Positions 46,201-48,090 are shown, counted from the first letter of the stretch. The stretch is DNA of 64,000 bases from Verrucomicrobiota bacterium (GCA_018239895.1 JAFEGL010000029.1:64574-128573), one strand, 5' to 3'. Made by a program: numbers and translations. Notes: generated from the sequence alone by a model not told the origin.

Positions 46201-48090
46201 TACACCTACAACTCGCTCAACCTCCCCAGCTCGCTCACTCGAGCCTTTGGAACAGCCGATGCGAGGACCTCCTCCTACACCTACACCCCCTCGGGGCGCC
46301 TCCTCACCCAGACGCAACCCGACGGGACTATTCTCAGCTACACCTACGACCCGTTTGGCTACCGAGAGTCGCTCCTCTCCTCCGACGGCACCATCTTCCA
46401 AACGTTCCGTTCGAACAAACTGGGACATCTCCTCTACGCCTCCGACAAGTCCCACATCCTCCAGCGGAAAGTCGACCGGTTCGGGAACATCCTTGAAGAG
46501 AGCATCGACGGGACCCTCACCCTAAAAAAGAGCTACGACGAAGTCGGCCATCTGACGACCCTCACTCTTCCCGACGGAAGTTCGATCGCCTACGAGTACA
46601 ATCCGCTCTACCTCTCTTCCGTCACTCGTCTCTCACCTCAAGGGGACGAGCTCTATTCTCACACCTACACCGACTACGATCTGATGGGATTGCCTCTCAA
46701 AGAGGTTCTCCCCATCAATGCCGGGACCATCACACACACCTACTATCCCGATGGCCGCGAGAAAAAGCTCCTCACTCCCTACCTCGTCCAAAACATCAGC
46801 TACGACGCCAAAGGGCGCGTCGCAAACATTTCGGGTGAAGGGGAGTTTTCTTACGACGAGCTATCGCAGCTTACCCAGGACCGCTCCACCCTGACCTACA
46901 GTTATGACGACCATTTCAACCGGGTCCAGGACAACGAGAACACCACTTCCTACAACCTTCTCGACCAGATCTCCGATCTACCATACGATCTCAACGGGAA
47001 CCTCGTTCACAAGAACGGCCTGACCTATAGCTACGACGCCCTCAACCGCCTCACATCTGTAGCCAGCGACGAGATGAACACCTCTTTCACCTACGATGCC
47101 CTGAACCGGTGCATCTCAAAGACCTCTAACAAAACCCAAGAGTTTTATCTCTATCACAACTCCGAAGAGCTCGGCTCATTCGCCCCCAACGGCGCGACCC
47201 TCAATCTCAAAGTCCCGGGCCTCTATCTCCGCCCCGTCGCCCTCGAGCTTGAGAACCAAACCGTTCTCCCGATCCTCGACTACCGCGGGAACATCCGCCG
47301 CCTCGTCTCGGACAACCAAACAATCCAGCAGTACGAGTACTCCGCCTTCGGCGAAGAGTACTCCTCAATGCCCCACGCCAACCCCTGGCGCTACTCCTCC
47401 AAGCGGTACCACCCCGAGATCATGCTCTACTCCTTCGGCCAGCGCTACTACGACCCAACCCTGGGCCGCTGGCTAACCCCTGACCCTGCCGGCTTCATCG
47501 ACGGAACGAATCTCTACGCCTATCTCCTAAACGACCCGCTCAACTCCCTAGATCCAAACGGAAATTTCGCCATCGCGATTCCTCTTGTTTGGTGGGGACT
47601 TGAGTTGGCCTTGCCTAGTCTTTACGCCTGCGTAGCTCCAATTGTTTACGGAGCTGTTACCGGCACGTTAGTCTACGGAGGTTACAAGCTGGTCGAATAC
47701 GCCAATGCTAACGGCATCGGATCTATGGGGGACTATTACACTGGAGACTTATCTCCTATTTCAAGTACACAAGACTATAGTTTCTGGAAAAATTATAGTA
47801 TCTATGCACCTGATAGACCTTTGCCTCGAGATCCAAGGACAAGAGAGCCGGTTCCTGAGACGGATGCTCCTCATACTGAACTGGGCACTAGAAATGGAGA
47901 AAAGGGACCATATCCTCAAGCTCGTGAATTTGATGCTCAAGGAAAACCTGTAAAAGATGTTGACTTTACCGATCATGGACGTCCAAAAAATCACCCTAAC
48001 CCACATGAGCATCAATGGAAACCTAATCCAACAGGCGGAACTCCTGAAAGATCTAATGAAGCCAAACCGTTATCAAACTATAGGAGATGA
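43261..48090 (+). CDS. Rhs/YD-repeat polymorphic toxin with Sec-type signal peptide and variable C-terminal toxin domain
   Basis: GGAGG Shine-Dalgarno precedes MKNWLCVLLAASAVIFA. There are dozens of YD repeats (YxYDxxGxL/R). The Rhs core ends with RYYDPTLGRWLTPDPAGFIDGTNLYAYLLNDPLNSLDPNGN (47551-47565). A hydrophobic linker and a His-rich tip follow. Confidence 0.9.
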   Translation: MKNWLCVLLAASAVIFADEKEPDLIASTPDQIASLSSEDLIGGVVSPLSGQVVIREIDLVAPGVQPIEIGRVYVPLGITAPSPVPPPEGGNQLDRYRWFSSHREYWAYVIANYRGWQHVPQRYVVIKDGKALITDQNGSVLEFKLKGGRYELTTPLYGIGSSSGEKDPRNIRISSEGEVYKVTYPDGLVRIYKASHINAYTLQKEILPNGKILRYTIDSSGIFIESLDPQERYVYATAKFDGKTQVTAGPDQAAFNYDATQNRKLRFKQKKGKKGKYNDLAPIEEEYDYPLPPILTRASTPNYRSEICDYTSFWQLSQYKGKDNWFMCAYDTGVSELSFPVGSDGSFETVYWISYNPPVAGQRGGSTQSIRADGVTTIYYFSQELLTTSVETYDPSGKLQMKKNYDWSSDHRLKMEEVLDGSGSLFYRKTYANYDPNGNPQLETFSGNLSGEGRLETWSVRREYSPENLLLKETDDEGKTTLFSYLPSTRLMTAKTILDGTQTVLQMTWTYDDCYNLIEETTSDATQKTITRYRLSQDPSTLHLPEWIETYYLDGTEKLLKKVKLAYDSRGHVAEEQIYDANGNFAWTIKHQYDEQGNLVSETNAMGDEALYAYTPEGKCSYSRNFSGRLEKKMTYDFAGRLEHMEEGKTRLTSFNYDPLNRCIEKTDYFGQTTNYTPDPVTGKTAKTQGPLAVVSSKTYDPLGREIQSIDPNGHITKTQYNAYGSPVTIHYPNGAIERFSYHRNGNLKSHTDREGTTTEYDYDILDRIISKTTWVEGEQIASETYTYSAFNLLSETDKEGNLTTYTYDKAGRKTSETAGVRVTNYFYDPMNRLIKTKNSQTTCQVEWDPLDRLLKERYLDKQGKVLSKIRYAYDKDGNQIAVYRYPQNEEKVETFEYDPFGRLIAHTDPLGNITTTYYDETGPTLTKITTDPLSLSTLITYDPYQRETHRQIGSTYREERTYDPAGNLLQIQEGDLITRYTYNSLNLPSSLTRAFGTADARTSSYTYTPSGRLLTQTQPDGTILSYTYDPFGYRESLLSSDGTIFQTFRSNKLGHLLYASDKSHILQRKVDRFGNILEESIDGTLTLKKSYDEVGHLTTLTLPDGSSIAYEYNPLYLSSVTRLSPQGDELYSHTYTDYDLMGLPLKEVLPINAGTITHTYYPDGREKKLLTPYLVQNISYDAKGRVANISGEGEFSYDELSQLTQDRSTLTYSYDDHFNRVQDNENTTSYNLLDQISDLPYDLNGNLVHKNGLTYSYDALNRLTSVASDEMNTSFTYDALNRCISKTSNKTQEFYLYHNSEELGSFAPNGATLNLKVPGLYLRPVALELENQTVLPILDYRGNIRRLVSDNQTIQQYEYSAFGEEYSSMPHANPWRYSSKRYHPEIMLYSFGQRYYDPTLGRWLTPDPAGFIDGTNLYAYLLNDPLNSLDPNGNFAIAIPLVWWGLELALPSLYACVAPIVYGAVTGTLVYGGYKLVEYANANGIGSMGDYYTGDLSPISSTQDYSFWKNYSIYAPDRPLPRDPRTREPVPETDAPHTELGTRNGEKGPYPQAREFDAQGKPVKDVDFTDHGRPKNHPNPHEHQWKPNPTGGTPERSNEAKPLSNYRR

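Follow-up and report, generated by a model that had tools for sequence, protein, structure and literature searches.

A Polymorphic Rhs Toxin Locus in a Chlamydia-Like Genome with a Probably Exchanged Ntox24-Like Tip and an Array of Immunity-Type Genes

Organization of the Rhs Locus

The 3′-terminal, variable part of a polymorphic Rhs toxin locus was analyzed in a stretch of DNA of 64,000 nucleotides (the window; GCA_018239895.1, JAFEGL010000029.1:64574-128573) that is assigned to a Verrucomicrobiota bacterium and looks like part of a chlamydia-like genome. The Rhs/YD-repeat polymorphic toxin gene (43165..48090, plus strand) is the longest open reading frame (ORF), with 1641 residues, and its protein consists of a signal peptide, a YD shell, a core reaching to the motif DPNG, a hydrophobic linker, a spacer and a toxin domain (the tip) of about 95 residues; the ORFs A, C′, D and B follow on the same strand. 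In the public annotation the protein starts at M33 (nt 43261) and has 1609 residues, its N-terminus, MKNWLCVLLAASAVIFA, resembling a Sec signal peptide; from M33 on, the product is 100% identical to the database protein P0211. The YD/RHS repeats were found by Pfam (PF05593 RHS_repeat, E 1.9e-68, 12 stretches) and by NCBIfam (TIGR01643, 166.6 bits; NF041261 also matches). The Rhs-associated core domain with its DPAG-x19-DPNG motif (47338..47562, plus strand) closes the conserved shell, and the TIGR03696 Rhs_assc_core model (74.5 bits against a cut-off of 32.5; residues 1360-1434 of the 1609-residue form) was aligned over profile positions 1-75 of 76 with the G of DPNG (nt 47562) as its final residue, exactly where the preliminary description, made from the sequence by eye, had placed the end of a canonical Rhs core. 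Unrelated tips sit behind the same core motif in related scaffolds. The gene has the features by which Rhs polymorphic toxins are recognized, namely YD repeats, a core ending in DPxG with a variable C-terminus behind it, and a gene of an immunity family directly 3′. The closest Rhs shells, which are from metagenomes (L086 and L087-L095), carry quite different tips after the shared core motif, and several of them have a common pre-toxin segment, 'FGLASEMN...CxCExHRxCKRGGD'.

The core is followed by a hydrophobic pre-toxin linker of 42 residues (47566..47691, plus strand; FAIAIPLVWWGLELALPSLYACVAPIVYGAVTGTLVYGGYKLV), delimited by hydropathy and designated type 1 (FAxxIPLLxWGxELxLP...YGGYK), in good agreement with the hydrophobic stretch of roughly 45 residues that had been read by eye. 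The 43-residue segment that comprises PNGN and the stretch to YGG has 1 charged residue, a mean Kyte-Doolittle value of 1.07 and one GxxxG motif. The type 1 linker was also found in L002, L013, L027, L037, L047, L062 and L085, and in L088 it is joined to an unrelated toxin; the closest tips (L005 and L006) have a Gly-zipper linker in its place, and many members of the tip family on PT-HINT or proteobacterial scaffolds are without a hydrophobic linker. By sequence comparison the linker appears to be a separate module that assorts independently of the tip and, since the same linker occurs with an unrelated toxin and the same tip with other linkers, it may be regarded as a delivery module. Behind it lies a poorly conserved spacer of 37 residues (47692..47802, plus strand; EYANANGIGSMGDYYTGDLSPISSTQDYSFWKNYSI), which contains a breakpoint in base composition at about 47740; co-linear nucleotide similarity with other loci begins only at 47781-47803.

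The Toxin Domain and Its Relation to Ntox24

The C-terminal toxin domain (47803..48087, plus strand) was delimited with Pfam, homologues and an AlphaFold2 model, and is an all-beta, Ntox24-like domain of about 95 residues. The hydrophilic part after the linker amounts to 135 residues with a mean hydropathy of −1.42, and the domain itself starts with YAPDRPLP (47803) and ends at the stop codon; the hydrophilic domain of about 120 residues described earlier is real as a hydrophilic part, but only some 95 residues of it are conserved. The most conserved part of the domain is the histidine cluster that had already been flagged by eye, D-H-G-R-P-K-N-H-P-N-P-H-E-H (DH-x5-H-x3-H-x-H; 47971..48012, plus strand), which lies in the loop between strands 3 and 4 and at the start of strand 4. 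No variation at H69, H75 and H79 was seen in an alignment of 72 sequences, in which H81 is conserved to at least 90%, and a trimmed alignment, in which residues G31 to R86 are counted along window positions 47794-48087, agrees. In the latter, the invariant residues are G31, Y40, R44, G50, D57, T59, H61, H67, P70 and H71, and H27, T28, Q42, E45, F46, F58, D60, G62, P64, H73, G82, T83 and R86 are nearly invariant. The cluster is the candidate for the active site or a metal site.

The AlphaFold2 model of the tip (predicted local distance difference test, pLDDT, 87.5; predicted template modeling score, pTM, 0.77) is a four-strand beta-meander with no helix. Sequence searches of the PDB with the profiles of the tip and of the B family gave chance-level matches only. 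Among predicted viral structures the model matched phage proteins weakly, one of them named minor capsid protein. In the same comparison it matched the C-terminus of BFVD entry A0A481YYZ3 (Foldseek E 4.5e-9, 37% identity), a 963-residue 'putative hemagglutinin' of Mimivirus LCMiAC01 from a giant-virus bin; this entry is either a bacterial contig mis-binned with the giant virus or a true transfer into an amoeba-infecting virus. Strands 2-3 of the tip (47905-47970, YPQAREFDAQGKPVKDVDF) read like a YD repeat, xFDxxGxxxxxxD, and the tip might have descended from shell repeats; the match of the family profile to a YD repeat of Tse15 was not significant (E 0.28).

The preliminary description had proposed that the same tip be sought on LXG, CdiA or Rhs scaffolds in other phyla, and homologues were found on Rhs and PT-HINT scaffolds in five phyla. 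A search with the 179 C-terminal residues returned 86 close homologues, many on Rhs fragments, one on a PT-HINT protein and some as short orphans, the named sources being Simkaniaceae, Betaproteobacteria, Iodobacter, Stenotrophomonas and Streptomyces. When the profile of the ~95-residue domain was searched against 1.84 billion cluster representatives (clusters at 50% identity), at least 1205 clusters were matched at E<=1e-3, 615 at E<=1e-10 and 156 at E<=1e-30. Among 150 matches listed, the domain is at or near the C-terminus of proteins of 96 to 2726 residues, and the long proteins are Rhs proteins with varied N-termini (DUF6443, DUF6531, SpvB/TcdB-type, immunoglobulin domains, PT-HINT). With one genome per species, 119 tip loci were collected; Chlamydiota dominate, and Verrucomicrobiota, Bacteroidota, Actinomycetota and Pseudomonadota bring the total to five phyla.

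The sole Pfam match of the tip was Ntox24 (PF15529), with E values of 5e-4 to 2e-3 over profile positions 7-79 of 91. Ntox24 matches at E<0.1 were obtained for 53 of 72 tip homologues, and P0073, a Stenotrophomonas Rhs protein with about 55% identity in the tip, clears the Ntox24 cut-off (25.6 bits against 24). Neither NCBIfam nor PADLOC returned a match to the tip or to the ORFs behind it. Ntox24 ('Bacterial toxin 24', formerly Toxin_49) was described by Zhang et al. 2012 (Biol Direct 7:18) as an all-beta domain with conserved Y, H and H and proposed to be a metal-independent endoribonuclease, located on RHS and FilH scaffolds with HINT, delivered by type II, V or VII secretion (T2SS, T5SS or T7SS) or with MuF, distributed over phyla that include chlamydiae and partnered by the immunity proteins Imm50 and Imm53. 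The window tip is similarly all-beta, with the four strands and no helix of its model, and is likewise C-terminal on RHS and PT-HINT toxins in phyla including chlamydiae. Y40, H61, H67 and H71, which are invariant in the tip family, may correspond to the conserved Y, H and H of Ntox24. In contrast to the 'single conserved histidine' of the Ntox24 text, the tip family has more invariant residues (five His, R, E and D), and its immunity partner is DUF2691-like rather than Imm50 or Imm53. MuF fusions have been reported for Ntox24; the weak matches of the tip model to phage proteins are reminiscent of these, but brought no confirmed MuF domain. The sequence comparisons suggest a divergent branch at the edge of Ntox24, not a certified member. 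The earlier remark that the tip could not be placed in a named toxin family stands as far as certified membership is concerned, but not in view of the sub-threshold Ntox24 match and of the close homologue that passes. A full-text literature search on Ntox24/PF15529 returned only predictions and annotations and no experiment; the novelty of the tip is reduced, not removed, because the family has been named but no experimental characterization of it was found. A 676-residue 'toxin' of Paenibacillus phage Fern, FERN_26 (L145, NC_028851.1), has a PT-TG pre-toxin domain and a 73-residue ORF behind it; its C-terminus was considered as a bridge and was not used, the similarity being weak (35% over 62 residues, E 4e-3) with no Ntox24 match.

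Immunity Genes A and B and the Remaining ORFs

The Rhs gene is abutted by immunity candidate A (48096..48569, plus strand), identified by adjacency, homologues and a structural model, with 157 residues, or 160 from the overlapping ATG at 48087. The Rhs stop codon is at 48088-48090, preceded by AGGAG at 48081-48085; ATG codons for A are at 48087, 48090 and 48096, the last of them 5 nt past the stop codon. The AlphaFold2 model of A (pLDDT 92.4) is an alpha/beta protein with no transmembrane segment. A has 112 homologues, and those with a source name are from Simkania or other Chlamydiae. At the distal end of the array lies B (49366..49821, plus strand), the third full-length ORF behind the Rhs gene and a 151-residue paralogue of A from a DUF2691-like branch, as judged by hhalign and PF10903. 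The hhalign comparison of A with B gave a probability of 95.7% (E 1e-8, 130 columns). Weak matches to PF10903 (DUF2691) were obtained for 15 of 22 B members, with a best E of 3e-5, and PF10903 is the precomputed label of 17 of 112 profile matches; its cut-off of 25 bits is not reached by window B (14.4 bits), and A has no match. DUF2691 is matched by the B branch, of which A is a remote homologue; unlike DUF2691 members proper, window B stays below the cut-off and A is without any match. No paper giving DUF2691 an immunity role was found in a literature search.

The A- and B-type genes track distinct tip subclades. In L005, L006 and L008, tips of the window clade have A directly downstream, split into two fragments in the case of L008, and A follows a second tip clade (SKRRPGEKY insertion, HGEP) as well; in the other PVC (Planctomycetes-Verrucomicrobia-Chlamydiae) and Bacteroidota tip clades, B is next in almost all cases. 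BLAST, applied to the ORF right after the tip in 84 related loci, recovered 13 members of family A and 39 of family B, and hidden Markov models (HMMs) added further B members; with the HMMs of both families a member of the A/B superfamily was found immediately after the tip in 74 of the 81 loci with enough downstream sequence, across five phyla. Because tip subclades and immunity types correspond, A is taken as the partner of this tip and B as an orphan. On these grounds A is the putative cognate immunity protein, expected to protect the producer by binding the toxin, and B would protect against B-type tips. The proposal that the ORF starting at 48087 is an immunity gene was strengthened accordingly: the ORF abuts the Rhs stop codon, its family co-varies with the tip subclades, and it is the best candidate.

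Between A and B lie C′ and D. C′ (48559..48729, plus strand) is a truncated ORF of 56 residues that overlaps the end of A and the start of D and appears as a gene-family remnant; it resembles the partial ORF L001:5248-5472 and a 134-residue ORF, L050:2374-2778 (E 1e-4 to 7e-7), and its relatives elsewhere are located downstream of tip-immunity pairs. D (48713..49363, plus strand; longest start at 48665) is an ORF of 216 residues that recurs in Rhs orphan/immunity arrays, with homologues in L002/L003 (tip-A-D), L021 (tip-B-D), L010, L017 and L082 (D-D-tip fragment-A), and is presumed from these contexts to be an orphan immunity gene for another toxin. No Pfam family was found in C′ or D.

Base Composition and Cassette Exchange

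The GC content at third codon positions (GC3) of the 24 other genes in the window was 0.64 ± 0.085. It was 0.57-0.78 in the Rhs shell, intermediate in the linker (0.47, measured over 47554-47769) and 0.23 in the tip, followed by 0.28 in A, 0.25 in C′, 0.27 in D and 0.43 in B. The quantitative analysis of composition that the preliminary description had asked for located a maximum-likelihood GC3 breakpoint within the Rhs ORF at nt 47740 (log-likelihood ratio, logLR, 46), where GC3 falls from 0.74 to 0.22. The C-ending codon style is also lost at the switch, as had been noticed by eye: C, the favored third base of the genome with a frequency of 0.39 ± 0.09, accounts for only 0.10 of third positions in the tip. 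A maximum-likelihood GC fit with two breakpoints placed these at 47735 and 49825 (GC 0.538, 0.359 and 0.555 for the three segments; logLR 114) and defines an AT-rich island of 2.1 kb (47735..49825; GC 0.359, flanks 0.54-0.56), within about 40 nt of the limits of 47.70 and 49.82 kb estimated beforehand. Other 9-kb stretches of the window reached a logLR of at most 48, so that the island is the strongest compositional anomaly in it. As for the view that the AT-rich tract is a tip-plus-immunity cassette, this holds for the tip and A; the tract as a whole is a layered array of A, C′, D and B behind the tip. No flanking direct repeats or tRNA genes were found at the edges of the island.

Tip and A (47803-48547) were found to align as a single nucleotide block with four other loci, with identities of 79% (L005), 75% (L082), 71.5% (L006) and 71% (L008), and the Rhs shells of these loci show only 38-43% protein identity to the window shell; the tip itself shares 76-80% identity with tips whose shells show no more than about 40%. 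The shared block, together with differing shells and linkers, indicates that shell, linker, and tip with its immunity gene are three independently assorting modules, and the module junctions match the two composition steps. In composition A (GC 0.32, GC3 0.27) equals its counterparts in low-GC hosts (0.32 ± 0.01 and 0.25 ± 0.03), whereas B (GC 0.41, GC3 0.43) lies above the B genes of low-GC hosts (GC3 0.26 ± 0.04, maximum 0.39) and resembles a B gene in a host of 0.53 GC. The same tip and immunity genes reach a GC content of 0.55-0.70 and GC3 of up to 0.89 when their hosts are high-GC Actinobacteria and Proteobacteria, from which it follows that amelioration occurs. The compositions suggest that tip and A are a recent arrival and B an older resident that is already partly ameliorated.

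L020, L047, L060, L068 and L082 were found to have arrays in which tip fragments are combined with additional A or B genes. L020 shows the mirror arrangement (B-type tip, B, tip fragment, A), L068 has four B genes in a row and L047 two further Rhs C-terminal fragments. Copies of the tip also reside on plasmids, including the MOBQ plasmid pPNK of Protochlamydia naegleriophila (L146, NZ_LN879503.1 8690-20902), on which three Rhs C-terminal fragments stand in an array, with small ORFs behind each of them; one fragment has a tip homologue that is followed by a 162-residue ORF. This plasmid also encodes an A-family protein (P0186) and is a possible vehicle for the spread of the cassettes. The composition, the orphan immunity genes and the mirror-image arrays of relatives are the grounds on which displacement of an earlier tip is inferred, as the preliminary description had supposed; that tip and A are foreign and mobile as one block agrees with this, and a remnant of an older tip is the part that is missing from the window.

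Proposed Mechanism and Alternative Explanations

The account proposed here, of an Rhs toxin with a swapped Ntox24-like tip, a cognate immunity protein A, orphan immunity genes and a nuclease mechanism, is considered likely as a whole, and its components of architecture, toxin-immunity pairing and cassette origin are held with high confidence. The block of tip and A would have entered by recombination near 47.74-47.80 kb from a cassette pool of lower-GC Chlamydiota or other PVC bacteria; one such array lies on a mobilizable plasmid. The incoming tip would have replaced an earlier one, C′, D and B being leftovers or collected orphan immunity genes and B probably the oldest resident of the island. 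By analogy with other Rhs proteins, the shell would enclose the tip, and aspartyl autoproteolysis at DPxG, of which the motif alone is seen here, would free linker and toxin. The linker may then help the toxin to cross the target membrane. In the target cytoplasm the toxin would act as a nuclease through the conserved His, Arg, Glu and Tyr on one face of the beta-meander, and in the producer A would block it by direct binding.

The contribution of the linker to membrane passage is suggested by its modularity and by the precedent of the Tde1 glycine zipper, since GxxxG/hydrophobic segments have been shown to permeabilize the target membrane for a type VI secretion system (T6SS) DNase (Ali et al. 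2023, PMC10240207). Like the glycine-zipper N-terminus of Tde1 and the cytoplasm-entry domains of CdiA-CT, the linker is a separable and exchangeable module in front of a nuclease-type toxin, with a putative role in membrane passage. It differs from the former in being a 42-residue hydrophobic segment with a single GxxxG, and from the CdiA entry domains in that these are folded domains that hijack membrane proteins. The locus as a whole is comparable to the Rhs loci of E. coli, Dickeya and Salmonella and to those of the T6SS Rhs effectors RhsA and Tse15, which also have a YD shell with a core ending in DPxG, a variable AT-rich C-terminal tip, an immunity gene right behind it, extra immunity genes downstream and tips swapped by recombination. 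Unlike these systems, the window protein has an N-terminal signal peptide instead of PAAR, VgrG or Tc partners, a hydrophobic linker separates its core from the toxin, its orphan region consists of immunity genes only, without orphan toxin fragments, and its setting is a chlamydia-like genome.

Several observations weigh against the account. The window tip scored 18.7, 20.5 and 20.8 bits (three cuts) against an Ntox24 cut-off of 24, and a precomputed PF15529 label is absent from all 86 close homologues. Foldseek searches of the PDB gave nothing significant for the models of the tip (best E ~1) or of A (best E 0.07), and since no solved structure resembles the models, the enzymatic activity rests on analogy and on the 2012 prediction. 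Pfam found no Imm50 or Imm53 in A or B. The top 19-residue hydropathy window of the C-terminal region (1.61) is borderline for a transmembrane segment, and neither PAAR, VgrG nor Tc partners for delivery of the Rhs protein were seen. No remnant of an older tip or Rhs fragment was found within the window, nor was an orthologous scaffold with a different tip found in metagenomes, the best shell being 49% identical, and the case for replacement is indirect for these reasons. Finally, 68 of 74 loci have immunity genes that exceed the Rhs core in AT content and, this being so in nearly every host, part of the low GC is a family trait and not a mark of recent arrival. Cassette replacement is well supported; it is the enzymatic activity that is only inferred.

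The conserved His, Arg, Glu and Tyr on a beta-sheet, together with the Ntox24 prediction, make a nuclease, and most likely an RNase, the reading put forward for the tip; an endoribonuclease is the leading candidate, offered tentatively and with somewhat less than an even chance of being right. An enzymatic activity of some other kind is possible, if doubtful. One form of it, judged unlikely, would be a small all-beta enzyme with a new fold and a site of four His, not an RNase of known type but, for example, a metal-dependent enzyme acting on a nucleotide or cofactor, neutralized by a new DUF2691/A superfamily and accompanied by linkers that are self-contained translocation modules; if this were true, Sec-exported Rhs toxins of Chlamydiota would enter target cells without a T6SS or Tc injector.

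Whatever its activity, the main target of the toxin could be the eukaryotic host in which a chlamydia-like bacterium lives, and the immunity protein would then serve only to protect the producer before export. Among the homologues Chlamydiota dominate, a group of obligate intracellular bacteria; the signal peptide of the protein is of the Sec type, T6SS parts were not seen, and Zhang et al. 2012 argued that many toxins of intracellular bacteria target the host. According to the same authors, however, such host-directed toxins are typically without immunity genes, whereas the window has a cognate immunity gene and three orphan immunity-type genes, which with the arrays in relatives are a hallmark of inter-bacterial conflict, and free-living bacteria, namely Streptomyces, Chitinophaga, Stenotrophomonas and Serratia, have this toxin-immunity pair as well. 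A main role against the host is consequently regarded as quite unlikely.

DNase activity of the tip is improbable, and equally so the specific proposal that it is a His-metal-finger DNase (HNH/EndoVII, Tox-HNH-EHHH type) in which DH...H...H binds a divalent metal. The arrangement [DE]H, H, H is the Tox-EHHH signature in Zhang et al. 2012, where Imm50 is listed as a partner of Tox-HHH/EHHH as well as of Ntox24; four His within 13 residues could form a metal site, and the window tip shares with Tox-HNH-EHHH and HNH-EndoVII toxins both [DE]H ... H ... H and the tip position in polymorphic toxins. Moreover, UniRef names the homologue P0066 'HNH/Endo VII superfamily nuclease toxins domain-containing protein'. 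This label was not reproduced, as the HNH-type models of Pfam had no match to the tip, P0066 or P0331 even at E<=10. The confident tip model has no helix, so that the beta-beta-alpha finger is missing, and Foldseek found no HNH or EndoVII structure; unlike Tox-HNH-EHHH, the tip lacks the HMM match, the beta-beta-alpha element and the structural match alike. In the HNH motifs of colicins the His spacing is also much wider than the x5, x3, x1 of the tip.

The composition switch could be explained without recent foreign origin if, for example, selection for low expression or constant exchange kept tips and immunity genes AT-rich everywhere; the cassette could then be as old as the shell. Besides the 68 of 74 loci already mentioned, the GC content of the tip, about 0.42-0.46 in most PVC hosts irrespective of core GC, is in favor of this. 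But tip and immunity genes do ameliorate in high-GC hosts, window B is intermediate while A matches low-GC hosts, and closely similar tips sit on widely divergent shells, which leave this explanation a very small likelihood. The slightest chance is given to the hydrophobic stretch as the toxic element, a pore or ionophore like Tse5 and the ionophores of contact-dependent growth inhibition (CDI) with the hydrophilic domain targeting or regulating it, for although the 42-residue segment stands directly behind the cleavage motif, related loci have Gly-zipper linkers and hydrophobic C-terminal toxins are known in CDI systems (PMC11630599), it is the hydrophilic domain and not the linker that co-varies and travels with immunity, the linker is swapped among unrelated tips and absent from many family members, the immunity proteins are predicted to be soluble alpha/beta and not membrane proteins, and the CDI ionophores are five-helix bundles (PMC11630599), for which the window segment is too short.

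Flanking Genes and Other Compositional Features

The Rhs locus (plus strand) is flanked within 41460-50789 by pyrG (41460-43136, minus strand) and kdsB (49998-50789, minus strand). These two genes are adjacent in Chlamydia, and the 6.7-kb Rhs locus may be an old insertion into the pyrG-kdsB pair. Exactly where the island ends on the right, between B and the convergently oriented kdsB, inverted-repeat stems form two GC-rich hairpins (49824..49914), the first with a perfect 15-bp stem (49824-49856) and the second, overlapping it, imperfect and of 20 nt (49849-49914). They are probably a terminator between the convergent genes; a terminator scan based on T tracts did not call them, there being no T tract.

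The C-terminal half of the Rhs shell (45373-47553) has a third-position C frequency of 0.57 against the background of 0.39, and its GC skew of −0.3 to −0.37 is more strongly negative than that of other window genes. Further AT-rich patches were observed at 11476-12126 and 36151-36751 (GC 0.37 and 0.34), and the ORF at 34995-36218 has a GC3 of 0.34 compared with 0.64 for the genome; these may be further foreign segments.

Biological Significance

The locus is an ordinary polymorphic-toxin arrangement of a known kind, and the understanding of such systems is unchanged by it. The analysis ties a toxin family of at least 1205 clusters in five phyla, for which no experiment was found in the literature searched and no structural relative in the PDB, to one dedicated DUF2691-like immunity superfamily, of which no mention as immunity was found in that literature. 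Earlier comparative work found intracellular bacteria to be mostly without immunity genes; environmental chlamydiae carry immunity arrays typical of inter-bacterial warfare. The independently assorting hydrophobic linkers are a lead on how Rhs toxins may cross membranes without an injection machine. The new points are modest, and consist in the link between the toxin family and DUF2691-like proteins, hydrophobic linkers that can be exchanged, and the occurrence of immunity arrays in genomes of chlamydia-like appearance.

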